Of a stretch of 64,000 bases of DNA, positions 8,933-52,263 are shown piece after piece. The DNA is from Candidatus Magasanikbacteria bacterium RIFOXYD1_FULL_40_23 (GTDB lineage Bacteria > Patescibacteriota > Patescibacteriia > Magasanikbacterales > GWA2-37-8). The stretch lies in assembly GCA_001783215.1 (NCBI GenBank), contig MFRA01000005.1:254322-318321 (forward strand), in the 5' to 3' direction. The first letter of the stretch is position 1, and each line of letters opens with the position of its first letter. A program made the translations under genes and the position numbers. The notes beneath the pieces were generated by a model, which worked only from the letters and a program-made list of their open reading frames with translations, made no database searches and had not been told where the DNA came from.

Positions 8933-9439
8933 CTAACGTCCTAATTTTGGCGCTGACATTTTGACCTTATACTTCATACCCATAAAGTTGCCTGTAAAAT
9001 GCTGTTTTCCAAACAGCGTTACATATTGTTGAGGGATATTATTGTCTTTTGTCCATTGCTTTAAATCCTCAGTTGTTTTTTTCATGGCAGCTGCTCTGTC
9101 GGTAGGGGTCATGTCTTTCAAGTCGACTAAACTTGTTTGTATCTCCTTGGTTTTACTGGTAATTAGATCTGCCTGGGCTTGGGTCAATTTTCCGTTTTTG
9201 ACCGCTTCAGCCAAGATGTCGGCCGTTCTTTTTTGGTGCTGCAGAGTGACTGTTTCGTTTATCACACTTTGCACATCCACCTGGTTTAGATTGAATTTTG
9301 CAGCAATGGCAGTAGAAATTTCGTTAAATTGATTATATTTTACTGGGTTAGTACTAGCCGCATAGGTGGTGCCTGCTGCCAGCAAGCCTACTACCGTAAG
9401 AGTAGATAAGGAAGCATATATAAGATTTTTCTTTTTCAT
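8933..9439 (-). CDS. Secreted hypothetical protein (signal peptide)
   Basis: MKKKNLIYASLSTLTVVGLLAAGTTYAAS signal peptide. 168 aa, Lys/Thr-rich. Confidence 0.5.
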   Translation of the reverse strand: MKKKNLIYASLSTLTVVGLLAAGTTYAASTNPVKYNQFNEISTAIAAKFNLNQVDVQSVINETVTLQHQKRTADILAEAVKNGKLTQAQADLITSKTKEIQTSLVDLKDMTPTDRAAAMKKTTEDLKQWTKDNNIPQQYVTLFGKQHFTGNFMGMKYKVKMSAPKLGR

Positions 9440-9592
9440 AACAATATAATATTAAGTTGGTGAATTATTTTTTTCGACCTTTTATACGCTGCGTATAATA
9501 ATACGTTCCACTGATTTAAAATGGTGCATCAGAAAAATTATATTTTTTACATATTTGTATTTTTTTGTTTTTTACAGTAGAGTGAAAATTAT

Positions 9593-11139: not shown

Positions 11140-12930
11140 ATGCTACACAAGATTATAGGTTGGATTACCAAACATAAAATATATACCCTTGTCATAGTGG
11201 GAGTTTTGGTTTTTGGTGGAAGATTTGCTTATCAATCTTTAAAAAGTGATAAGGTTGCTGTTAGTTATGTTTTAAGTACAGTTAGTAAAGGTACTTTGAT
11301 TACTTCTATTTCTGGCAGTGGTCAAATTTCTGTAATAAATCAGGTTGATATAAAAGCAAAAGCCGGTGGGGAAGTAACTGGTGTGTATGTAAAACAAGGG
11401 CAAGAAGTAAAATCCGGAACTATTTTGGCGCTAGTTGATGCTGGTGATGCGCAACGTTCGGTACGTGACGCGCAAACATCTTTGGAAACAGCCAAGCTAG
11501 AATTGGATAAAATACTTGCACCAACAGACGAGCTTACTTTGTTGCAGGCAGAAAACTCTTTGGCTCAGACAAAAGAATCAAAACAAAAGGCGGAAGATAG
11601 TTTAAAAAAAGCGTATGAAGATGGCTTTAATACTATATCCAATGCATTTTTAGCCTTGCCCGGAGTTATTACTGGATTACAAGACCTGCTTTTTTCTAGT
11701 ACTCTTAGTTATAGTCAGGCAAATTTAGATTTTTATGCAGGCGCTGTAAAAAGTTATGATGACAAAGTTTTGCAATATAGAGACGACGCCTATAACACTT
11801 ACCAAACAGCCCGTGCTGCCTACGACAAAAACTTTCAAGATTTTAAGTCTGTAACCAGATTTTCTGATTCAAATACAATTGAAAACACTATTACTCAAAC
11901 TTACAATACTACTAGACTTATTGCCGAAGCTGTAAAAAGCGCCAATAACCTAGCTCAGTTTTATCGAGATAAACTCACAGAACATAATATTGAACCAAAT
12001 TCAATTTCTGCCACTCATCTTTCTAGCCTTAACTCCTATACTAGTATTACCAACAGCCATCTTTCCAGTCTTCTTTCTATAAAACAAACCATCGCTGACT
12101 CGCAAGCTTCTATTATAAGCACAGCCAGAACCATACAAGAAAAAGAATTATCGCTTGCAAAGACAAAAAGCGGTGCAGAGACTTTGGATATTCGTGCAAA
12201 AAAGATAGCGATTCAACAAAAAGAGGATGCCTTAGCTGCCGCTAGACAGACATTGGCTGATCATTATGTACGTGCGCCTTTTGACGGTGTGATTGCCAAA
12301 GTTAATATTAAAAAAGGGGAGTCGCTTTCCTCCGGAGGTGCTGTGGTTACGCTTATTACCAAACAACATACAGCGGAAGTTTCTTTAAATGAAGTGGATG
12401 CAGCCAAAATTAAAGTTGGACAAAAGGTGAATGTAACATTTGATGCCATTGATGGTTTGAAGATTTCCGGCGAAGTTGCAGAGATCGATGCGCTTGGTAC
12501 GGTATCACAAGGAGTTGTAACTTATAATGTAAAAATTGTTCTTGATACTCAAGATGACAGAATAAAGCTTGGTATGAGTGTGAGTGCAACTATCACTACC
12601 GCCGTTAAACAAGATGTAGTTATAGTTCCTAGCAGTGCTGTTAAAACCCAAAACGGCAACAGTTATGTAGAAATGTTTGATCAACCAATACAGAACCCAA
12701 GCAGTCAAGGTGTAACTTCAGATATTCCTCCGCGCCAACAAGTTGTACAGATTGGTATTTCTAATGACACTGAAACAGAAATTATTTCTGGTCTTAAAGA
12801 AGGCGATCAAATTATAATTAGAACTGTTACTGCTTCTGCTGCTAAACCAGCTACTACTCAGGCACCAAGTTTGTTTGGTACAGGTGGTGGAGGAAATAGA
12901 ACCTTTAATGCAGGCGGGGCAGGACGTTAA
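11140..12930 (+). CDS. Efflux periplasmic adaptor subunit (HlyD/MacA-like), long form
   Basis: N-terminal TM, long coiled-coil region, beta-barrel-like C-terminal half (VRAPFDGVIAKVNIKKGE). Immediately upstream of a MacB-like ABC pair. Confidence 0.7.
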   Translation: MLHKIIGWITKHKIYTLVIVGVLVFGGRFAYQSLKSDKVAVSYVLSTVSKGTLITSISGSGQISVINQVDIKAKAGGEVTGVYVKQGQEVKSGTILALVDAGDAQRSVRDAQTSLETAKLELDKILAPTDELTLLQAENSLAQTKESKQKAEDSLKKAYEDGFNTISNAFLALPGVITGLQDLLFSSTLSYSQANLDFYAGAVKSYDDKVLQYRDDAYNTYQTARAAYDKNFQDFKSVTRFSDSNTIENTITQTYNTTRLIAEAVKSANNLAQFYRDKLTEHNIEPNSISATHLSSLNSYTSITNSHLSSLLSIKQTIADSQASIISTARTIQEKELSLAKTKSGAETLDIRAKKIAIQQKEDALAAARQTLADHYVRAPFDGVIAKVNIKKGESLSSGGAVVTLITKQHTAEVSLNEVDAAKIKVGQKVNVTFDAIDGLKISGEVAEIDALGTVSQGVVTYNVKIVLDTQDDRIKLGMSVSATITTAVKQDVVIVPSSAVKTQNGNSYVEMFDQPIQNPSSQGVTSDIPPRQQVVQIGISNDTETEIISGLKEGDQIIIRTVTASAAKPATTQAPSLFGTGGGGNRTFNAGGAGR

Positions 12931-18953: not shown

Positions 18954-19049
18954 GATTTTGCCAGAGGTTTTTATTTATACTGCATAATTGACAAATTGCA
19001 TAATTAATATTATAAAAGCTTAATACAACCAAGTGTCAGGAGGTTTGTT

Positions 19050-19286
19050 ATGGCAACGACGTTTCTGGATGCTTTGAAAAGAAAAGGTGGCGGTGAAGGT
19101 GCAAAAGCTATGCTTAGACACCTTAGAGCCAAACTTTCGGGGGAAAACTTTGATAGATTTTTGAACAGCACCCCGGACGGTGATGATTTCTGGCCCGCTT
19201 ACATAAGCAGAAAGTTCACCAAAGATGAGCCGGACAAATATGGATACGATCAGTTTGCTGCGGACGTTCTTCGTCTACGTGGCTAG
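19050..19286 (+). CDS. Small hypothetical protein (78 aa), GC-elevated (~47%)
   Basis: ORF followed by two strong terminator hairpins. No recognisable motif. Confidence 0.35.
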   Translation: MATTFLDALKRKGGGEGAKAMLRHLRAKLSGENFDRFLNSTPDGDDFWPAYISRKFTKDEPDKYGYDQFAADVLRLRG

Positions 19287-19342
19287 CTGGTGTTGTTACT
19301 AGACTATGTCCCGACACCCACAAGCTGAGTGTCGGGAAAAAT

Positions 19343-19380
19343 AAAAAGTAACCCAAATATTTGGGTTACTTTTTATTTTA
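19343..19380. terminator. Bidirectional rho-independent terminator between convergent genes; a second hairpin lies at 19309-19337
   Basis: aaaaagtaaccc-aaatat-ttgggttacttttt with U-runs on both strands. Upstream hairpin cccgacac-ccacaagctga-gtgtcggg. Confidence 0.6.
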
Positions 19381-19508
19381 GATAATTCATTCGTCGTCAC
19401 CTTTCTTAAAGACAAATTGTTTATCTTTAGAAAGGTAGTGGGACGACGAGTGGGATTCGTCAGATCACACTGCCTCTGATTGGTTTCCCAATCAGGTGTA
19501 GTGCCGGT

Positions 19509-20096
19509 CTACGCCGTGAACAGCTTGGGAAGATGTTCGCGCAGGGCCGTCGTATCGTCGACGGAGATTCTGAACTTCTCCGTGGCCTGGCTCAGAACCT
19601 GCTTGGCCTCGTCCACGTTGCGGACCCCGTTCGCACTTCCGAGCAGGCGGTCGTTCTTGTAGAACCCCATGGTGGCACCGCAGCCACGGCAGCCCACGAG
19701 CACGATGATGTGCTCGTTGTGACTGATCATGCGTGTGATCTGCTCGTGACCAGCGCCGCCGAAGATCAGGATCACGTCCACGATGGGCATCATCTGCGGT
19801 ATGCTCTTGAAGCTCTCGACGAACAGGTCGTCGTCGCCGAAGGTTTCGGGCAGGTCGGCGGCCGCGACCGCGCTGCTGATGAGCGCAGAAACGCGCTTCT
19901 CCTCGTCGCTGGCCGTGGCCTCGTCCATGACGAGCGCCATGACCGCGCCCGCCTTGCGCGAGCCGAAGGCCGGGCCCTTGGTCGGCTTCTCGACCCCTTC
20001 GCGGAAGAGCTTGACGTGGGCGTGAACGCCGTTGGGGCCCTTGTGACCGCGGCACCCCTCGTCCTTGCAGTACTCGAGTTCGATACGATTCTTCAT
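19509..20096 (-). CDS. GC-rich (>60% GC) hypothetical protein (~196 aa from MKNRIELEYCK). Cys/His-rich N-terminus plus a Rossmann-like core. Probable horizontal acquisition.
   Basis: Abrupt GC jump relative to flanks. CKDEGCRGHKGPNGVHAH and VDVILIFGGAGHEQ...IIVLVGCRGCGAT. The ORF track's longer 237-aa version runs into the AT-rich upstream region. Strong terminators lie 3' of the gene. Confidence 0.5.
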   Translation of the reverse strand: MKNRIELEYCKDEGCRGHKGPNGVHAHVKLFREGVEKPTKGPAFGSRKAGAVMALVMDEATASDEEKRVSALISSAVAAADLPETFGDDDLFVESFKSIPQMMPIVDVILIFGGAGHEQITRMISHNEHIIVLVGCRGCGATMGFYKNDRLLGSANGVRNVDEAKQVLSQATEKFRISVDDTTALREHLPKLFTA

Positions 20097-20383
20097 GTGA
20101 GTATCCTGCTTTCCTTTTGTGCTTCCCCGGAGCACAGGTGTGTTATTGCTGGGGAAATAACCTACGAATTTCTTAGGCTTTTTTCCCAGCAAAAAAATGT
20201 AAAGAACGACGTATATTAGCAAAAAATACCTCTTTTGTCAATAGTTGGTAAAAGAGAGTGTGGTGTTGTCTTTGTCATTTTAAACAAAGTATTATATAAT
20301 ATTCTCACTAAATTATTTCCCGCCGTTTGCTTGGCGCAAACGCGCAGGGATCCCCGGTGGGGGAAAACAACTTTTTAAAATAT

Positions 20384-20734
20384 ATGCAGGACATCCAAGA
20401 GATATTTAATCGCATGCAAGAAATTAAGAAAAAGCAAAAAGATATCCGCAGTGCTTATAAAGAATCATTAGAAGCTTCGTTGGAGTATAAAGAAATAAAT
20501 GACAAAATAAAAACTCTTAGAGAAAGAAAAAAACAAATTGAAAATATTACCAAAGAATCTTTTTCGGCAGAGTTTACAAAGCTTGATGATTTTAAGATTG
20601 ATCTAGAATCAGACAGTGTAATGTTAAGCGATATTGCTTTAAATAAATTGATGAAAGGCGAGACAGTGCAGGTGGTAGATGAATACAATAATAGTTACGA
20701 GCCACTCTTTACGGTAAAATTCAAAAAAACCTAG
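20384..20734 (+). CDS. Coiled-coil hypothetical protein (start taken at MQDIQEIF; the ORF track starts at 20327 inside a hairpin)
   Basis: Lys/Glu-rich heptad-like sequence followed by a terminator at 20775. Confidence 0.4.
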   Translation: MQDIQEIFNRMQEIKKKQKDIRSAYKESLEASLEYKEINDKIKTLRERKKQIENITKESFSAEFTKLDDFKIDLESDSVMLSDIALNKLMKGETVQVVDEYNNSYEPLFTVKFKKT

Positions 20735-20774
20735 TGCGTTTTTAGTAAGCCTCTTCAGAGATCTTGTATATTAA

Positions 20775-20810
20775 ATCCACCGCCAAAATTGGCGGTGGAT
20801 AACTTTTTAT
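20775..20810 (+). terminator. Rho-independent terminator
   Basis: atccaccgcc-aaaatt-ggcggtggat followed by aactttttat. Confidence 0.55.
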
Positions 20811-20854
20811 AAATCTATTGACGGTACTTTTAATAGGGTATACGATAAATGCAA

Positions 20855-21005
20855 TAGAGAACTAAGTTCGATGGCAAAAGCTGCAGACCACGTCTGCAAC
20901 CCAACCTCAACCCACCTCTCTCTACCCATATGGATTCAACCCGAATCCACCCACCACACACACCCACACGAGACCAAAGCTTCGGCTAAGGTCTCTCATT
21001 TTTTT
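20855..21005 (+). ncRNA. Candidate small RNA: C/A-rich, G-poor tract with CCCAC/CCUCU repeats, ending in a terminator hairpin
   Basis: Possible promoter TTGACG(20818)-17 nt-TACGAT. Body caacccaacctcaacccacctctctctaccca...ccacccaccacacacacccacac. Terminator gagacc-aaagcttcggctaa-ggtctc followed by tcattttttta. The overlapping 79-aa ORF (20871-21110) is low-complexity and probably not coding. Confidence 0.25.
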
Positions 21006-21018
21006 ATAATTAAATTAT

Positions 21019-21477
21019 CTACTTTCTGTTTTCTCGCATTACTTCGTTTTGAATGGTATTTATATTTGTTTTTTCTTTCATTCTCTTTAATTCTTTATCG
21101 TCTTCGATAGGAAGTCCTAAGTGGTCGTGAATTTCATCGAGCATGTTTATTATTCTGGTAACTTCATGTTCTGCCTTGATATTAATTTGTAAATCTATCT
21201 CTTCTCGCAAATCGTCTATTTGGCTGGCGCGATTTTGACTGATAAGCACAATAACGCTAAGAAATATGGCTTCCAAAGATACGGCGGTAGTAAGCAATCC
21301 GTATGGATATGGGTCAAAAACAGGAAGATTAGGAATAAATCCGGAATTTATAATTATCCATACGGCAAAAACGATAGCGTTTATAACAAGAAACCAAACT
21401 GTGCCAAAAGAATTTCTGAGAAAATCGGCGCAGCGGTCGACCGGACTTTTATTTTTTTCTAGTTTTGTTCTGAACAT
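21019..21477 (-). CDS. DUF1003-like membrane protein
   Basis: Two TM helices (VWFLVINAIVFAVWIIINSGF, LLTTAVSLEAIFLSVIVLISQNR) followed by a charged coiled C-terminal region, as in DUF1003 proteins. Confidence 0.5.
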   Translation of the reverse strand: MFRTKLEKNKSPVDRCADFLRNSFGTVWFLVINAIVFAVWIIINSGFIPNLPVFDPYPYGLLTTAVSLEAIFLSVIVLISQNRASQIDDLREEIDLQINIKAEHEVTRIINMLDEIHDHLGLPIEDDKELKRMKEKTNINTIQNEVMRENRK

Positions 21478-22177: not shown

Positions 22178-22984
22178 ATGAATATTTTTCGTAGAATTGC
22201 AGAACGTATCGTGGCGGCGGGTTTTAGTTTGGCAGTGCTTTGGTTGGTTGTAACTCAAATTTTTGAGCGACTAGACCAGCGTATGCCTGCTTTTTTGGCC
22301 GGCGTTCTTACTTATATAGTGGTTGCGTATAGTTTGCTTCCTCGTCTTATTCAGTTTGTGCTTATGGTATTGCGCAGAGGGCGTGTGCCTAGGTTTACAC
22401 GCACAGGTGACGGTTTGCTAGCTGATCCGGTAAATATAATTTTAATTGGCTCAGAAGAGATGTTGCGACATATTTTTGTTAGTGCTGGTTGGTATGAAGC
22501 AGAGCCATTAACATTTAAGTCGGCTACAAAAATGATTTGGGCTTTTGTTAATAATAAGCCATATCAGACCGCGCCGTTTAGTTCGCTTTATCTTTTTGGC
22601 CGCAGACAAGATTTTGGGTTTCAACAGCCAATAGGAAAAAGCCCTCGTCACCGTCATCATATACGGTTTTGGGCTGCCAACCTTGATCCCGAAAAAGATA
22701 TTACAAATTTTAAGTATTGGCTCCAAACACATGCGTTAGATCCAAATCAGCCGGTAATGTGGGTGGGTAGTGGTACCAAAGATATTGGTTTTGGTTTAAC
22801 CAGGCACACATACCAGATTAGCCACAAGGTAGATAAAAATATAGATCAAGAGCGTGATCATATAATTGCCGCTCTGCGACAGACAGGGCTACTTACCCAA
22901 GAGCATTACTTTGATCCGGGTAAATTTATTGTTGGTAAATATAAATCCGATGGACGGATACTCACCGCTTATATAGAAAAATAG
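22178..22984 (+). CDS. Hypothetical membrane protein (2 N-terminal TM helices plus a ~200-aa soluble domain)
   Basis: FSLAVLWLVVTQIF and FLAGVLTYIVVAYSLL helices. No catalytic motif recognised. Confidence 0.45.
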   Translation: MNIFRRIAERIVAAGFSLAVLWLVVTQIFERLDQRMPAFLAGVLTYIVVAYSLLPRLIQFVLMVLRRGRVPRFTRTGDGLLADPVNIILIGSEEMLRHIFVSAGWYEAEPLTFKSATKMIWAFVNNKPYQTAPFSSLYLFGRRQDFGFQQPIGKSPRHRHHIRFWAANLDPEKDITNFKYWLQTHALDPNQPVMWVGSGTKDIGFGLTRHTYQISHKVDKNIDQERDHIIAALRQTGLLTQEHYFDPGKFIVGKYKSDGRILTAYIEK

Positions 22985-30462: not shown

Positions 30463-33400
30463 ATGCAGAAATACGATCCGAAAAAAATTGAAAAAAAGTG
30501 GCAGAAATATTGGGAAAAGAATAAAACTTTTGAAGTGCAAGAAGATGCTAAAAAAGATAAATTTTATTCTTTGATTGAGTTTCCTTACCCGAGTGGCGAG
30601 GGTCTTCATGTTGGCCATCCACGCCCATTTACGGCCATGGATGTGATAAGCCGCAAAAAAAGAATGGAAGGCAAAAATGTTTTGTTTCCCATTGGTTTTG
30701 ACGCTTTTGGTTTGCCGACCGAAAACTTTGCTATTAAAACCGGTAAACCGCCAGCCGAAGTAACGAAAAAAAATATTGCCAACTTTACCCGCCAGCTTAA
30801 AATGCTTGGGTTTAGTTTTGATTGGTCCAGGCAGGTAGACACTACTGACCCAAATTATTATAAATGGACCCAAAAATTATTTTTGCAATTTTTTAAACAT
30901 GGTCTTGCTTACAAAAAAAACCAGCCAATTAACTGGTGTCCAAAAGATAAAATCGGTTTGGCAAATGAAGAAGTGGTAAATGGAAACTGTGAGCGTTGCG
31001 GCACTCCGGTAGAAAAACGAAACAAAGAGCAGTGGATGCTTGCCATTACCAAATATGCCGATAAGCTTTTGGATGGTTTAAAAAACGTAGATTATATAGA
31101 GCGCGCTCGTTTGCAACAAGAGAATTGGATTGGTAAAAGCGAAGGTGCCGAAGTAGATTTCCCTCTTCGCATGGTACCAGGCCAGACAGATGATAAACAT
31201 TTTGTAAAAATATTTACTACTCGCCCGGATACAATTTTTGGGGCAACTTTTTTGGCAGTCTCTCCAGAGCTTGCTAAGAGTTGGTTAGATATAGGTTGGC
31301 AGGCTAGTGAAGAAGTAAAAAAATATATAACTCAGGCGCTTGAAGCTCGTACCGCGGTAACTGCTCGTGAAGAACAAGAAAAAACTGGTATAAGTGCCGG
31401 CATTGTGGCAATCAATCCAGTTTCCAAAAAAGAAATTCCAGTTTGGATAACCAATTATGTAATGGGTGAAGTTGGTACGGGTGCAATTATGGGCGTGCCG
31501 GCGCACGACCAGCGTGATTTTGATTTTGCCAAAAAGTTTGGATTGCCAGTTAAACAGGTGGTTATGCAAAATATTGTGGTGGCAGGTGCCGCCGCACCAC
31601 GAGAGGGCAAAGATTTAGTGCAGCGTAAAGTAGTGACAGGTATTATTCATAATCCAAAAAATGACACTTTTTTACTTTTACGACGTGCAGATAAAGAAAG
31701 TTCTTTCGTTGGTGGTACCATTGAAAATGGCGAAGATGCTATTACAGCCCTACGTCGTGAAATTGTGGAGGAAACTGGATATACAGATTTTGAAATTAAA
31801 AGTACTTCTTTTCCTAATTTTTTTGGTAATGGCTATAAATTACGTATTGATAAAAATTGTTTGGACTTTGAATATTTTTATGCAGTTGAGCTAAAGAGCG
31901 AAGATCGTCAGGAAGTCAGCAAGGAAGAACTAGCAAAGCATGAACCATTTTTGGTACCACGCGCAGAAGTGTCTAAGACAATTACGCTTACAATGCATCA
32001 ATACATGTGGAAATATTATACAGAGGAAAAACCAAAGTATTTAATTTTTGATTTTGATGGGGTAATTGGTAATACTTTTGAGGCGTGTGCTAAGGCACAG
32101 ATGGTTATAGATAATAAAAGTAAGGAAGAGGCAGTTGAAGCAATGACAAGATATTTTAGCAGTAAGCCAAATCATGCCAAGGGGCACAGTCTTACAGAGA
32201 TAGAGATGGTTGCGAAGCTTGATTGGACGCGCAGATTTGGCGAAGAAATGGCAAAGCTAGAGTATTCATTATTTAGTAAATTTAATAAAGAAATAAAAAA
32301 CATACCAAATACAAAGGTTGCTATTATTTCTGCGGGTTCCGGATTATATATTAGAAATAGAATAGAAGAAACCGGCCTTAACCCAAGCCATGTTCTTACC
32401 TTTGAAGACCATCATTCCAAAGAAGAAAAAATAGAACAGGTCTGCAAAGATTGGGGAGTGTCTATGAAAGACGTTTATTATTTCACTGATTCCAAAGCAG
32501 ACGTATACGAATTGGAAGATTGTTTGGATCGTAAAAAAATAATCGGCTGTGCTTGGGGTTATTGCGGGTATGATCTATTGCGAGAATTGTTGCCAGAAAA
32601 CCAGGTATTAAAAAATCCAGAAGATATCCATTTGTTATTTGCAGATTCGGTTTACGAAAATGAAGGTGTGGCTGTGGAGTCAGAATTTTTAAATGGTTTA
32701 AAAACACCGGAAGCTAAACAAAAAATGATTAGTTGGTTAGAAGAAAATAGAATAGGCAAAAAACAGATAAATTATAAACTTCGCGACTGGGTTTTTTCCC
32801 GTCAGCGATATTGGGGTGAGCCAATTCCGCTTGTGCATTGCGAGAAATGCTCTGGCTGGGTTCCTCTTCCCGAAGATGAATTGCCGCTCAAATTGCCAAA
32901 AGTAGAAAAATATCAGCCAACCGATAATGGCGAATCTCCTTTGGCCGCAATGGAAAAATGGGTAAAAACTAAATGCCCAAATTGTGGCGGTCCGGCCAGA
33001 CGAGAAACAGATACTATGCCAAATTGGGCTGGTTCAAGTTGGTATTTTTTGGCCTATGCAATGGGTGGAGAAAAAAGATTAAAAGAAAAAGGCGATAAGT
33101 TTTGGGATAAAGAAATGCTAAAACATTGGCAACCTGTAGATTGGTACAATGGGGGAATGGAACATACAGTTTTGCATTTGTTGTATTCTCGTTTTTGGAA
33201 TCAATTCTTGTACGATATTGGTATGGTGCCAACACCCGAGCCGTATGCCAAGCGCACATCACACGGCATGATTCTCGCCAAGGGTGGAGAAAAAATGAGT
33301 AAATCCAAAGGAAATGTTGTAAACCCGGATGAAATGGTGGAACAGTTCGGCGCTGATGCTTTGCGCGCTTATATTATGTTTATGGGTCCGTTTGATCAGG

Positions 33401-33957
33401 CAGTAGAGTGGGATACAAATGGGCTAGTTGGGGTGAAAAGATTTTTGGATAAAGTATGGAATTTGCAAGAAAAAGTTGAAAATAAAATTACAGATACTAA
33501 AATTGAGACGGCTTTACATCAAACTATTAAAAAAGTTACCGAAGATATAGATGCGATGCGGTTTAATACAGCGATTGCCAAGATGATGGAATTGGTGAAT
33601 GAGATGTCAAAAGCGGATAAGATTTCAGTTGTAAATTATACTTATTTAGTTCAAATTTTGGCGCCATTTGCTCCACACCTGTGTGAAGAACTGTGGGATG
33701 TGCTTGGACATGAAAAATCATTAGCCTGTGAATCTTGGCCGCAATTTAATCCGGAATTAATAAAGGAGAGTGAAGTCACTTTGGCTGTCCAAGTAAATGG
33801 AAAATTGCGCGATACAATAACTGTGGCCGCAGACATATCGGAAGAAGAGGCCAAAAGGACGGCGCTATCAAGCGAAGCAGTTAAGAAGTGGCTAGAAGGT
33901 AAAGAGCCAAAAAAAGTTATCTATGTAAAAGGCAAGTTGGTGAGTGTGGTGGTTTAG
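30463..33957 (+). CDS. leuS: Leucyl-tRNA synthetase with a ~400-aa internal insertion carrying Nudix-hydrolase-like and HAD-hydrolase-like modules
   Basis: HVGH (class I HIGH motif), CP1/editing blocks (TTRPDTIFGATFLAVSPE, VPAHDQRDFDFAKKFG), KMSKS, an anticodon-binding C-terminus. Insert at ~31570-32770 has GGTIENGEDAITALRREIVEETGY (perfect Nudix box Gx5Ex7REUxEExGU), LIFDFDGVIG (HAD motif I) and VAIISAGSG. Confidence 0.9.
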   Translation: MQKYDPKKIEKKWQKYWEKNKTFEVQEDAKKDKFYSLIEFPYPSGEGLHVGHPRPFTAMDVISRKKRMEGKNVLFPIGFDAFGLPTENFAIKTGKPPAEVTKKNIANFTRQLKMLGFSFDWSRQVDTTDPNYYKWTQKLFLQFFKHGLAYKKNQPINWCPKDKIGLANEEVVNGNCERCGTPVEKRNKEQWMLAITKYADKLLDGLKNVDYIERARLQQENWIGKSEGAEVDFPLRMVPGQTDDKHFVKIFTTRPDTIFGATFLAVSPELAKSWLDIGWQASEEVKKYITQALEARTAVTAREEQEKTGISAGIVAINPVSKKEIPVWITNYVMGEVGTGAIMGVPAHDQRDFDFAKKFGLPVKQVVMQNIVVAGAAAPREGKDLVQRKVVTGIIHNPKNDTFLLLRRADKESSFVGGTIENGEDAITALRREIVEETGYTDFEIKSTSFPNFFGNGYKLRIDKNCLDFEYFYAVELKSEDRQEVSKEELAKHEPFLVPRAEVSKTITLTMHQYMWKYYTEEKPKYLIFDFDGVIGNTFEACAKAQMVIDNKSKEEAVEAMTRYFSSKPNHAKGHSLTEIEMVAKLDWTRRFGEEMAKLEYSLFSKFNKEIKNIPNTKVAIISAGSGLYIRNRIEETGLNPSHVLTFEDHHSKEEKIEQVCKDWGVSMKDVYYFTDSKADVYELEDCLDRKKIIGCAWGYCGYDLLRELLPENQVLKNPEDIHLLFADSVYENEGVAVESEFLNGLKTPEAKQKMISWLEENRIGKKQINYKLRDWVFSRQRYWGEPIPLVHCEKCSGWVPLPEDELPLKLPKVEKYQPTDNGESPLAAMEKWVKTKCPNCGGPARRETDTMPNWAGSSWYFLAYAMGGEKRLKEKGDKFWDKEMLKHWQPVDWYNGGMEHTVLHLLYSRFWNQFLYDIGMVPTPEPYAKRTSHGMILAKGGEKMSKSKGNVVNPDEMVEQFGADALRAYIMFMGPFDQAVEWDTNGLVGVKRFLDKVWNLQEKVENKITDTKIETALHQTIKKVTEDIDAMRFNTAIAKMMELVNEMSKADKISVVNYTYLVQILAPFAPHLCEELWDVLGHEKSLACESWPQFNPELIKESEVTLAVQVNGKLRDTITVAADISEEEAKRTALSSEAVKKWLEGKEPKKVIYVKGKLVSVVV

Positions 33958-49972: not shown

Positions 49973-50917
49973 ATGGAACTAGAACAATCTCTCCGCCAGT
50001 CAATACTTAGCACTCTAGCATATTTTGATTTATCTCAATTTCCCCTTACCAAAGAGGAACTTTTTGTTTTTCTTTGGGAGCCGCCGACCGTTAATTACGC
50101 AGATTTTTTGGAATTATTACAGACAGATAGTTTTGTAAATGGTAATTTTGAAACCAAAAACGGTTATTATTTTTTGCCAGGACGCCAAGAATTAGTAGAA
50201 ATAAGAAGACGCAGATTAATTATTTCAGAAAAGAAATTAAAGATTGCCAGGCGAGCGCTTAGAATAATTAGATCAGTTCCGTTTCTGAAAGCGGTATTTG
50301 TTTGCAATACGGTGGCATCAGAGCAGGCAAGTATAGATAGTGATATAGACTTTTTCATCGTTACAGCCAAGAACAGGATTTGGATTACCAGATTATTTGT
50401 TACATTTTTACTAGGACTGTTTAGATTGAGGCGTGTTAAAAATCGTGTCAAAGATAAAATTTGCCTTAGTTTTTATGTTACCGAAGAAGCTTTGGACCTG
50501 TCCAAATTTAGAGTAATAGACGACGATGTTCACTTTGCTTTTTGGATAAACCAAATGTTGCCGGCGTATGATCCGGATAATTTTTATGCCAAATTTTTGG
50601 AAGCAAACAGTTGGACAAAAAAGTATTTACCAAATATAAATAGTAGTAGCGCTTCTTCGTATATTTTTAGGATTACCAATTCTAAATTAGGCAAAATTTG
50701 GAAGAGTGCATGGGAGAAAATGTGGGAGGGGAGTTATGGCAGCTTAATTAATGAGGAAGCCAAAAAAATACAGATTTCTAAGATGAAATTTTCTGGTAAC
50801 AAAATAGACCGAGGCGATGATAAAGGAGTGGTAATTTCTGATTCTGTATTAAAATTTCACGAAAAAGATACTAGAATTGAATATAGAGAATTATGGAAAA
50901 ACAAAATCGGGGTTTAA
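49973..50917 (+). CDS. Hypothetical protein with a minimal nucleotidyltransferase-like motif
   Basis: VCNTVASEQASIDSDIDFFIVT fits the G[SG]...DxD pattern of the Pol-beta-type NTase fold. Otherwise unrecognised. Confidence 0.4.
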   Translation: MELEQSLRQSILSTLAYFDLSQFPLTKEELFVFLWEPPTVNYADFLELLQTDSFVNGNFETKNGYYFLPGRQELVEIRRRRLIISEKKLKIARRALRIIRSVPFLKAVFVCNTVASEQASIDSDIDFFIVTAKNRIWITRLFVTFLLGLFRLRRVKNRVKDKICLSFYVTEEALDLSKFRVIDDDVHFAFWINQMLPAYDPDNFYAKFLEANSWTKKYLPNINSSSASSYIFRITNSKLGKIWKSAWEKMWEGSYGSLINEEAKKIQISKMKFSGNKIDRGDDKGVVISDSVLKFHEKDTRIEYRELWKNKIGV

Positions 50918-52263
50918 TTTTGCAAGAAGTTCAACATGTGTTAGCGTTGTTGTTTTTGTTTTTGCTGCCATGGCAAACCAGATATATTTGGAAGTATGGC
51001 CAATTAAATGGCGGCTATTGGGAGTATGGCACGGGCAGTCTGTATGTAACAGAGATTTTATTGTGGGTTATTTTGGTATTATTTTTTGTTAATAATTTTT
51101 TAAAGAAAGAAGTTTGGGTCGGTTTGTTTAAAAATAAAAATGTTTTTTCTTTGGTGTTCGCTGGGTTTTTAGCTGTGGTGGGCGCATCAGTAATGTTGAG
51201 CGAAAATTTTGGCATCTCCTATAATTATATTTTCCGTATTTTGGAGGGCATGGCCATAATGACGGTGCTGTTTCGGAGCGGGCAGTCTGTCATCCTGAAC
51301 GGAGTGAAGGATCCCTTAAACACAAATGAAAGGGATTCTTCGGTCGCTTTTCTTCCTCAGAATGACAGATATGTAGTTGCTATTTGGCTTGGCGCGGTAG
51401 GGCAGGGAGCGCTGGCGATTTATCAGTTTTTGACCCAGCATGTTTTTGCCAGCAAGTGGCTAGGTATGGCAGCGCAAGAGTCGTACAACTTGGGCCCAAG
51501 CGTAATACAATTTGCTGACCAGAGGTGGTTGCGCGCCTACGGTAGTTTTGGTTCGCCAAATTCTTTGGGGATTTATTTGGCTGTGTTATTTGTATTAGGT
51601 TTTATTTTATATTTTAAAACGCAAATACCGCGCTATAAAATTTTAATTAGCGTAGGTCAATTATTTATTTTATCTGGATTGTTGCTTTCTTTTTCTCGCG
51701 GGGCGTGGTTGGCAGCTTTGGTTGGTCTGGCATCTCTTTTTATTGTTTTATTTTTTAAACAAAAAGATTTTTTACGAGATTTTATAAAACAGATCGTATT
51801 TGCTTTGGGTGTAGCTATATTTTGGATTATTATTTTTTATCCAGTTTTTAACGCCAGATTTAATTTGCAAAATCGTTTGGAAGCCACGTCTGTTTCCGAA
51901 AGAAAAGGGCAGTATAGCGAATCTTTATCTTTTATTAAATTAAATCCAATTTTTGGGGTTGGGCCGGGCGTATATACTTTTGCTTTGGCCAAAAAATATC
52001 CAGATTTAGCTTCGTGGCAGCTGCAGCCAATACATAATATTTATTTACTTATTCTCGTAGAGATGGGCATATTTGGTATGTTGGCTATATTTTTATCAGT
52101 TGCCAGTATTGCTAGACTGATACTTAAAAATAACTTAATTTACGCACCAGTTTTGACGGCTTTGTTTGCTTCTGGAATGCTAGATCATTGGTTGGCCAGC
52201 CTGTTTACAGGCATGGTTTTTTGGTGGGTAGTCTTGGGTTTAGGCCTAAAAAAGAACCCTTGA
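50893..52263 (+). CDS. O-antigen ligase/polymerase-like (Wzy_C-type) polytopic membrane protein carrying an in-frame Family-A repeat
   Basis: About 10-12 TM helices with a periplasmic loop containing RGAWLAALVGL-type Wzy_C features. Inserted peptide VILNGVKDPLNTNERDSSVAFLPQNDRYV. Confidence 0.55.
   Translation: MEKQNRGLILQEVQHVLALLFLFLLPWQTRYIWKYGQLNGGYWEYGTGSLYVTEILLWVILVLFFVNNFLKKEVWVGLFKNKNVFSLVFAGFLAVVGASVMLSENFGISYNYIFRILEGMAIMTVLFRSGQSVILNGVKDPLNTNERDSSVAFLPQNDRYVVAIWLGAVGQGALAIYQFLTQHVFASKWLGMAAQESYNLGPSVIQFADQRWLRAYGSFGSPNSLGIYLAVLFVLGFILYFKTQIPRYKILISVGQLFILSGLLLSFSRGAWLAALVGLASLFIVLFFKQKDFLRDFIKQIVFALGVAIFWIIIFYPVFNARFNLQNRLEATSVSERKGQYSESLSFIKLNPIFGVGPGVYTFALAKKYPDLASWQLQPIHNIYLLILVEMGIFGMLAIFLSVASIARLILKNNLIYAPVLTALFASGMLDHWLASLFTGMVFWWVVLGLGLKKNP
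51288..51368. repeat. Family-A palindromic element, copy 3 (in frame in the Wzy-like gene)
   Basis: tgtcatcctgaacggagtgaaggatcccttaaacacaaatgaaagggattcttcggtcgcttttcttcctcagaatgacag. Confidence 0.85.

Follow-up and report, generated by a model that had tools for sequence, protein, structure and literature searches.

A rare family of GC-rich single-gene units with conserved leader RNAs in low-GC groundwater bacteria

Introduction

How does a single, strongly GC-rich gene come to sit on the core chromosome of an AT-biased bacterium, and is its composition the mark of a recent arrival? The question is raised by a 64,000-nucleotide stretch of Candidatus Magasanikbacteria bacterium RIFOXYD1_FULL_40_23 (contig MFRA01000005.1, positions 254,322 to 318,321; hereafter the window, numbered from its first letter), in which GC content jumps across a minus-strand open reading frame (ORF) at 19509-20096. 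A reading of the letters alone (the original prediction) had taken this island most simply as recent horizontal transfer from a high-GC donor, with the proviso that an assembly chimera had to be excluded. We report here that the island is real chromosomal sequence and that its product belongs to a very rare, undescribed family of six sequence clusters, every one of which lies in a low-GC context. Comparison of their sequences shows that the GC-rich ORF and the AT-rich control elements around it have stayed linked by descent while the proteins diverged to 23-36% identity. What is surprising is that the ORF remains GC-rich in low-GC genomes, and more likely than not a simple recent transfer is an insufficient explanation for it.

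Results

The GC island coincides with one protein-coding frame

Mean GC across the window is 0.390 (standard deviation 0.045; 300-nt windows over 64 kb). It exceeds 55% solely at about 19,400-20,200, or 19,450-20,110 on narrower bounds, where it peaks at 67% (0.673), and values above 0.51 are confined to 19,351-20,250. The runner-up, at 51,251-51,550 within ORF 50893-52263, is the one further window to pass 0.50; it reaches 0.507 and is far milder. As predicted, the jump overlies the minus-strand ORF (195 aa; GC 0.63 versus 0.38 in the flanks), and on the 3' side the GC-rich stretch extends ~60 nt (60-70 nt) beyond the stop into the proximal 3' untranslated region (UTR). GC at the first, second and third codon positions (GC1, GC2 and GC3) is 0.62, 0.40 and 0.88 in the annotated frame. 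Long host ORFs have a GC3 of 0.34 +/- 0.054 (maximum 0.52, n = 43), which places the GC-rich ORF ~10 standard deviations away. Its codon choice is the host's in mirror image: 14.4% of its codons are rare in the host, versus a mean of 3.1% and a maximum of 6.1% in host genes (4.6 times the mean). The description of a compositionally foreign gene in a self-contained unit is therefore borne out, the gene having its own predicted promoter and terminator.

Further frames are open across the island, including a 228-aa antisense ORF. The original prediction had put such openness down to GC content, and several open frames are indeed expected at such high GC. Consistent similarity across the family comes from the sense frame alone (25 significant pairs); antisense frames give weaker shadow matches, the expected echo of sense codon positions 1 and 2. 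An antisense or overlapping gene is ruled out, the 228-aa ORF being the kind of open shadow frame that high-GC genes ordinarily have.

In AT-rich genomes, islands of high GC often turn out to be structured non-coding RNAs. An island of ~650 nt between hairpins in a 39% GC genome, with a very stable predicted fold (-0.45 kcal per nt) and a family absent from protein libraries, could be taken for a large structured RNA in which the ORF is incidental. We consider this very improbable: strong three-base periodicity is seen in one frame only in all members (GC3 0.88 and GC2 0.40), Cys, His, Gly and Pro residues are invariant (E to 4e-25) despite saturated DNA, and a confident two-domain fold is modelled from the six-sequence alignment. 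A Shine-Dalgarno (SD) sequence and start codon are also in place, and the RNA shows neither a structure excess over synonymous shuffles nor an Rfam match.

The island is chromosomal

An identical protein is encoded on an independent 2.2-kb ENA contig, which corresponds to window positions 19,037-21,223 at 100%. Each of the two flanking genes, when looked up, led to 18 contigs in assemblies (ENA, JGI, Logan and NCBI) of groundwater samples of the Rifle type, among them the metagenome-assembled genome (MAG) GCA_001783315.1. All retrieved contigs agree at 100% with the window over the left or right junction, the left being crossed at this identity by L212-L214, L217 and L218 and the right by L222, L223 and L225. 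Four assemblies cross the whole island (ERZ4902915 NODE_10, Logan SRR4388699, ERZ5996431 and an NCBI scaffold); the first of these, a 300-kb contig, is identical (100%) to the window over the 15 kb retrieved around the locus. Each of the 18 species contigs that extend to the locus carries the unit, with zero single-nucleotide polymorphisms (SNPs) in the island, and an empty site was seen in none of them.

Suspicion that a fragment of a high-GC organism was mis-joined into a low-GC contig, by chimeric assembly or contamination, could attach to three observations. Several contigs from independent assemblies stop inside the island at 19,919-19,951 (ends of L212, L213, L214, L222 and L223), the NCBI scaffold carries Ns at 19,894-19,950 (L211 7598-7670 falls at the same break), and one island-spanning contig has a coverage of just 1.8x. 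However, the breaks fall at the GC peak within the gene and not at the island junctions, as GC-dependent coverage loss predicts, and such loss explains them best; strain hypervariability is ruled out as their source, the island being without SNPs. Given that independent assemblies reproduce both junctions and the whole island at 100%, and that units of like architecture occur in unrelated samples, the likelihood of a chimera is negligible. The breaks and Ns within the gene are the reason why the MAG has no gene call there. Coverage loss of this kind may systematically hide GC-rich genes from MAG annotation, and the family may look rarer than it really is.

A very rare family of GC islands

A word-indexed search of 5.8 billion proteins found nothing besides the protein itself. 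An exhaustive HMMER search of 1.84 billion representatives (clusters of 15 billion proteins) recovered five true relatives (P0002-P0006, or P2-P6) at 23-36% identity, to which a profile search added none. Similarity is retained at the protein level (E as low as 4e-25), though the DNA is saturated, and the 90% clusters of the relatives contain one to three sequences each. Protein-pattern scans of IMG/VR and JGI metagenomes gave no further members. A DNA pattern built on the leader gave two chance matches in IMG/VR and at least 119 stretches in metagenomes, where the known P0003 contig alone is real among the matches listed; two of the others, L131 and L138, are unrelated hairpins. A further HMMER match, P0007, is a 2,827-aa plant NB-ARC/NLR protein and is spurious, its score summing seven repeated weak P-loop matches (E = 3.5e-6). 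The protein is seven nearly identical copies in tandem, which probably reflects an error of assembly or annotation, and such repeats can inflate whole-sequence HMMER scores. In a pairwise identity table of the family, shuffled controls scored equally high, and the P4 variants considered for the ratio of nonsynonymous to synonymous substitution rates are essentially identical to each other.

Each relative is likewise a sharp single-gene GC island in a low-GC contig (35-44% GC where flanks are available):

Window copy (WIN): gene GC 0.63, GC3 0.88, flank GC 0.38
P2: gene GC 0.62, GC3 0.83, flank GC 0.35
P3: gene GC 0.66, GC3 0.90, flank GC 0.44
P4 (truncated, 117 aa): gene GC 0.55, GC3 0.63, flank GC 0.41
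P5: gene GC 0.53, GC3 0.63, flank GC 0.44
P6: gene GC 0.55, GC3 0.60, upstream 150 nt GC 0.33 (contig too short for a far flank)

All six have a GC1 of 0.60-0.64. No member in a high-GC context was found among the 1.84 billion representatives or in the profile search. The foreign composition on which the original prediction rested stands, but the high-GC donor that it invoked is represented by no homologue in these searches. The neighbourhood is different for each member: P3 lies beside rpoB and a transposase, P2 in a mobile island, and the others among ordinary, non-mobile chromosomal genes. Since the contexts differ each time, we take the gene and its controls to be an autonomous unit.

Anatomy of the unit

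By our reading, positions 19,338-20,241 of the minus strand form a single autonomous expression cassette on the core chromosome. Its parts, in order of transcription, are:

20213-20241, minus strand: predicted sigma-70-type promoter (TTGACA, 17 nt, TAATAT, extended TG; 10/12 matches in a consensus scan)
20143-20195, minus strand: leader hairpin 1, ~21 bp, arms GGGAAAAAAG and TTATTTCCCC (inverted repeat and covariation)
20116-20138, minus strand: leader hairpin 2, with a G-run in the loop (CCGGGGA)
20104-20107 and 20094-20096, minus strand: SD-like AGGA and ATG (read from the sequence; start backed by homologue alignment)
19509-20096, minus strand: GC-rich ORF, 195 aa, two-domain Cys/His protein
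19468-19503, minus strand: GC-rich hairpin directly 3' of the stop, within the ~60-nt GC-rich proximal 3' UTR (inverted repeat and fold)
19388-19452, minus strand: long 3'-UTR hairpin with an asymmetric internal bulge, CCACU (inverted repeats and fold)
19338-19379, both strands: perfect 42-nt palindrome with A and T runs either side, a predicted bidirectional intrinsic terminator

The leader, between predicted promoter and ORF, is ~110 nt long. The palindrome is 100% self-complementary and is predicted to end the cassette transcript and to serve a convergent small ORF as well. Three hairpins had been noted 3' of the gene; they are present, at 19309-19337, 19338-19379 and 19388-19452, and the one at 19468-19503 makes a fourth. 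The idea that bidirectional terminators bound the island on both sides holds for the 3' side, at 19338-19379. On the other side, the hairpins at 20143-20195 and 20116-20138 are not terminators and lie inside the gene's own 5' leader, downstream of the promoter.

The stop codon is TAG in 5/6 members (window 19509-19511; L082, L083, L084 and L085). P6 has three in-frame TAGs ahead of the first TAA, and in the window 69 codons are open after the TAG. This signal is weak because TAG is already common in the host (17/52 long ORFs, ~33%), where TGA is rare (7/52).

Conserved leader and 3' elements

The 5' regions of all six members can be aligned, though the proteins are near the detection limit, and conservation of the leader exceeds that of the protein downstream. 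They share a common order of a -35 TTGACAAA box, a -10 box, then TTCTTTAACA, a hairpin, a G-run hairpin, and SD and start. P3 has TTTACA where the other five align on the TTGACAAA box; at the SD position, P3 and P5 carry AAGGAGGA and GGAGG. Across the family, hairpin 1 is long, with arms GGGGAAAAGA and TCTTTCCCC followed by GCAATA, and in the window copy its conserved flanks read TTCTTTAC on the 5' side and AGCAATA on the 3' side. Covariation was measured over its 21 pairs on a five-member alignment (A6). In this alignment 87.5% of cells are paired versus 40-59% with the partners slid, both sides change at 8/21 pairs versus one to five when slid, and the covariation score was matched by none of 500 shuffles. 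Hairpin 2 has GGGGG in or near its loop and is represented by equivalent hairpins with differing stem sequences, whose stems fall in different alignment registers and so offer no common register for covariation.

A covariance model of the leader (R2) scores its five training leaders at 71-92 bits, the window leader at 73 bits, and recovers the untrained, degraded leader of P4 at 27 bits (E ~9e-4). It finds one leader per contig, with no second copy in the 64-kb window or in the other contigs. Rfam 15 at its gathering threshold returned two tRNAs alone from the whole window, and permissive Rfam scans of the cassette and three homologous loci gave generic hairpin noise only. No terminator/anti-terminator alternative is evident in the leader. 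Leader GC is 0.31-0.49, and at variable positions it is 0.37-0.45 in the three members whose GC3 is 0.83-0.90 (WIN, P2 and P3).

The 3' plan is shared by 5/6 members and comprises a GC-rich hairpin after the stop, a 25-30 bp asymmetrically bulged hairpin, and a canonical terminator, the last of which closes every full-length member. The post-stop hairpin is comparable in P2, P3 and P6. The long hairpin has the bulge CCACU in WIN and P3 and CCACG in P4, and the WIN and P4 copies are 79% identical over 73 nt; P2 and P6 have a second type of long bulged hairpin and an identical terminator sequence. These comparisons indicate that the inherited unit comprises promoter, leader, ORF, 3' hairpins and terminator.

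The encoded protein

The two peptides quoted in the original prediction, CKDEGCRGHKGPNGVHAH and LVGCRGCGAT, both lie within the 195-aa product, and its Cys/His-rich N-terminus and second CxxC are upheld by the family. The N-domain holds C10, C15, H25 and H27, and the C-domain a CxxC at 144-147. In the alignment C10, H25, H27, F44, S46, G50, A80 and P83 are invariant across the family, and the second N-terminal Cys (C14/15) and the C-terminal CxxC are kept in all full-length members. This pattern suggests one or two zinc sites, and the product is probably a zinc-binding, two-domain Cys/His protein. An AlphaFold2 model built on the six-sequence alignment (mean predicted local distance difference test score 80) has two alpha/beta domains, an N-domain of three strands and two to three helices, with H25-x-H27 on a predicted beta-strand, and a C-domain of a four-stranded antiparallel meander with two helices. 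The Rossmann-like core proposed earlier is not supported: the model places the antiparallel meander there, and the GGAGHEQ stretch is not conserved in homologues.

That no family could be assigned has, on the other hand, proved correct at the level of sequence, profile and structure. None of the six members matches Pfam, NCBIfam or PHROGs; PADLOC has no match for five members and gives only weak single-member matches at E >= 0.0065. The PDB has no match by sequence or by profile, and Foldseek found nothing at E <= 0.001 in the PDB or BFVD. A strongly acidic DNA-mimic protein is ruled out by the isoelectric points of the family, which range from 4.4 to 8.3. There is no conserved partner gene, the neighbours differing in each context. 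Neither PADLOC nor the neighbours offer a match to a known anti-phage defence or toxin system, a role that the original prediction had raised as frequent among isolated foreign genes of this size.

Neighbourhood in the window and beyond

The window is core chromosome, encoding DnaE, LeuRS, GroEL, IF-2, RNase Y, TruB and ComEC, and host genes have SD sites and sigma-70-type promoters. Around the cassette lie genes for a HAD hydrolase, TauE, DUF1003, a type IV secretion system pilin (PF18895; 1.3 kb from the cassette), LssY_C, RNase Y and IF-2. Given its SD sites, sigma-70-type promoters and pilin gene, the host is probably of the candidate phyla radiation (Patescibacteria) type. Neither an integrase nor direct repeats were found at the cassette borders, and the nearest tRNA is 13 kb off. 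A scan of genome contigs with the HAD neighbour gave no relative above 62% identity and no synteny. Elsewhere in the window, the leucyl-tRNA synthetase (30463-33957, plus strand) is unusually long (1,164 aa), with an insert that has weak MutT/Nudix-like matches at about residues 388-505.

Two features on the convergent side of the cassette belong to its neighbour:

19050-19286, plus strand: convergent 78-aa ORF, GC 0.47, AGGAGG ribosome-binding site; gene call in all assemblies
19309-19337, plus strand: hairpin 3' of the 78-aa ORF, the neighbour's and not the cassette's (inverted repeat)

The GC elevation noted earlier for this small ORF is confirmed. It has no homologue at any family locus and no Pfam or PADLOC match, and its hairpin has no counterpart at the other family loci; the ORF is a neighbour, not a conserved partner. 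On the other flank, a coiled-coil ORF of 135 aa (20327-20734, plus strand) has one weak match, of JetC/MukB type (E 0.0012). The two ORFs that adjoin the cassette are both orphans, and neither recurs beside other family members.

One gene does recur. An LssY_C gene (window 22178-22984, plus strand; L088 8444-9253, plus strand; 57% identity) lies <2 kb from the cassette in both genomes and is the sole gene common to the 64-kb window and the 14.6-kb L088 locus, where the cassette copy is P4, truncated, with a degraded leader and a GC3 of 0.63. Orientation of LssY_C relative to the cassette differs between the two. The shared gene suggests long residence of the cassette. The original prediction had set recent transfer against the alternative that the same gene sits at the same locus in relatives with gradually ameliorating composition; this second pattern is seen in part, as a truncated copy with partial GC decay near the same LssY_C in a related genome, and within the species the cassette is in all 18 contigs.

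The island around P2 (L084 1-20645) is mobile or defence-like in content, with two C5 DNA methylases, a SNF2 helicase beside a NOV_C protein, a ParB-N6/N4 methylase, a LexA-like repressor, a serine recombinase and a CHAP/SH3 lysin. It also holds a solitary Cas2-like ORF (11914-12192) and, divergently upstream, a DUF4145/HEPN-like ORF (9063-9515) with an R-x4-H motif. Between the P3 cassette and a DDE_3 transposase fragment, ~400 nt downstream of the cassette, lies a non-canonical tRNA-like element (L085 2584-2672, plus strand); it scores 38.8 bits against Rfam tRNA-Sec, below the gathering score, and ARAGORN makes no call. A tRNA-Ser(CGA) (L088 11101-11188, minus strand) lies ~750 nt downstream of the P4 cassette. 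These tRNA or tRNA-like elements may be remnants of integration sites or a coincidence.

Comparison with known systems

In anatomy the cassette is closest to a phage moron, an independent transcription unit inserted in a phage genome (PMC3594210). It has one gene with its own predicted promoter and terminator, its GC is sharply unlike that of the surrounding genes (0.63 versus 0.38 in the window, and similarly in the homologues), and it occurs in unrelated neighbourhoods, that of P2 being a prophage-like island or one like an integrative and conjugative element. The phage context, however, fails: ordinary chromosomal genes, not those of a phage, surround the window copy and most others, and neither protein-pattern nor leader-pattern scans of IMG/VR found a relative. 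Unlike a moron, the cassette belongs to a family in which a structured leader and 3' hairpins are conserved, and the compositional contrast is a property kept by all members and not left over from a last transfer.

Horizontally acquired genes are reportedly expected to ameliorate towards the composition of their host, a model put forward by Lawrence and Ochman, and in bacteria both ORFans and recently acquired genes are typically more AT-rich than the genome they reside in. The cassette gene resembles such genes in its isolation, its atypical composition and codons, and its almost complete lack of database relatives. It differs in being far GC-richer than the host, in having no detectable donor lineage, and in a composition that persists across ~65-75% protein difference beside host-like, homologous non-coding DNA.

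Transcripts bracketed by stem-loops are familiar from the R sites of phage T7, sib retroregulation in lambda, and 5' stabiliser hairpins. Three features of the cassette recall these RNase III-type bracketed mRNAs and genes controlled by leaders or riboswitches, namely a conserved, covarying 5' hairpin between promoter and start, a long hairpin ahead of the terminator whose internal loop is asymmetric, and a leader better conserved than the protein it precedes. In contrast to leader- or riboswitch-controlled genes, the cassette leader has no Rfam match, no evident terminator/anti-terminator or SD-sequestering alternative, and accompanies this one gene family only.

The hairpins near both ends of a ~0.9-kb unit with one ORF also call to mind IS200/IS605 elements and integron cassettes, and with them the possibility that the unit is a small mobile element which moves via its terminal hairpins, its ORF being a recombinase or transposase. 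Conservation of those hairpins in a unit of ~900 bp, the invariant H25-x-H27 on a predicted beta-strand and an insertion context that differs in each genome would fit this proposal, which we nevertheless consider quite improbable. The cassette has no Y1/HUH transposase (PF01797), no Pfam Y1_Tnp, transposase or integrase match was obtained for any member, and there is no conserved catalytic Tyr despite the H-x-H motif. The leader is single-copy in the 64-kb window and in the other contigs, no empty site was seen among the 18 species contigs, and the position of the 5' hairpin, 3' of a conserved promoter, is that of a transcribed leader. Unlike an integron cassette, the unit has its own promoter, with no IntI gene or other integrase domain among the neighbour genes scanned and no cassette array; the attC cores R'' (RYYYAAC) and R' (GTTRRRY) are both absent from 19,280-19,520, around the 3' hairpins, on both strands.

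Discussion

Why, then, does the ORF stay GC-rich? We favour selection specific to the ORF, for GC content or for a codon set, over repeated transfer, and give it about an even chance of being right. The composition would then be held by selection on the ORF and would not be the leftover of one recent transfer. At ~30% identity synonymous sites are saturated many times over, and an unconstrained GC3 should therefore have decayed in AT-biased genomes. Recent import is disfavoured because high-GC relatives are absent from the searches (1.84 billion representatives and the profile search), because the unconstrained positions of a co-transferred leader should be GC-rich, yet stand at 0.37-0.45, and because the promoters, AT-rich stems and U-tract terminators are low-GC in type and homologous between members.

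The alternative is that the ORFs have been transferred repeatedly and recently from an unsampled high-GC reservoir of bacteria, phages or plasmids and have not yet ameliorated. Codon usage is that of a typical high-GC bacterium (CTG/CTC, CGC/CGG, GCC, GGC, ATC, AAG and GAG), a GC1 of ~0.62 implies long GC pressure, and the spread of GC3 from 0.90 to 0.60 resembles stages of amelioration. Mobility is hinted at by the serine recombinase in the P2 island, the DDE transposase adjoining P3, and the tRNA or tRNA-like genes near P3 and P4. We nonetheless judge this explanation rather unlikely. The searches turned up no high-GC homologue, and three independent donors would all need to be unsampled; promoter, leader, long hairpins and terminators are homologous and AT-rich, with host-like GC at unconstrained positions. 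The window copy, moreover, is fixed and identical in all assemblies, among core genes and without integrase or repeats, and the LssY_C synteny in a related host argues for long residence.

Several points weigh against ORF-specific selection as we have framed it. P5 and P6 are full-length and have intact leaders, yet their GC3 is 0.60-0.63; selection, if it acts, is therefore not uniformly strong. Synonymous-codon shuffling reveals no consistent extra RNA structure in the coding sequence (z -2.6 to +1.2), SD and start are not consistently sequestered, and there is no complementarity between the 5' and 3' UTRs. The family comprises just six clusters, most of them on short contigs, so that ascertainment is thin, and a high-GC reservoir could be unsampled. 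Any reason offered for GC retention is, finally, pure inference.

With that said, post-transcriptional control would be the most likely reason. The predicted folding of the mRNA is very stable, and a structured message with few AU-rich stretches, capped by stem-loops at its 5' and 3' ends, could form a nuclease-resistant, long-lived transcript. Host-rare codons (14% versus 3%) might at the same time make its translation throttled or conditional. A long-lived, throttled transcript would suit a dose-sensitive or conflict-related protein, and it is plausible that the leader hairpins act as a cis-regulatory switch, possibly bound by the cassette's own protein.

A more specific idea, which we think unlikely, is that the host-foreign codon usage is itself the selected, functional feature. 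It might work as a codon-gated switch, the protein being made only if an invading phage or a partner cell, for instance, supplied tRNAs that are scarce or missing in the host. Alternatively, the gene might be tuned for the GC-rich partner cell of an episymbiont of the candidate phyla radiation type and delivered to it as nucleic acid; the type IV secretion system pilin gene is 1.3 kb from the cassette. Were either true, selection would be preserving the base composition of a whole gene family in the face of host mutational bias.

Both the structured leader RNA and the protein family are undescribed, and they come from poorly known groundwater bacteria. Foreign base composition is routinely taken as a clock of recent transfer, and in this cassette family the clock appears not to run: GC3 reaches up to 0.9 beside homologous, host-like, AT-rich controls at ~30% protein identity, and always in low-GC genomes. 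If selection does hold the composition, the family would provide a rare and clean example of selection acting on one gene's nucleotide content or codon set, as well as a warning for composition-based detection of transfer.

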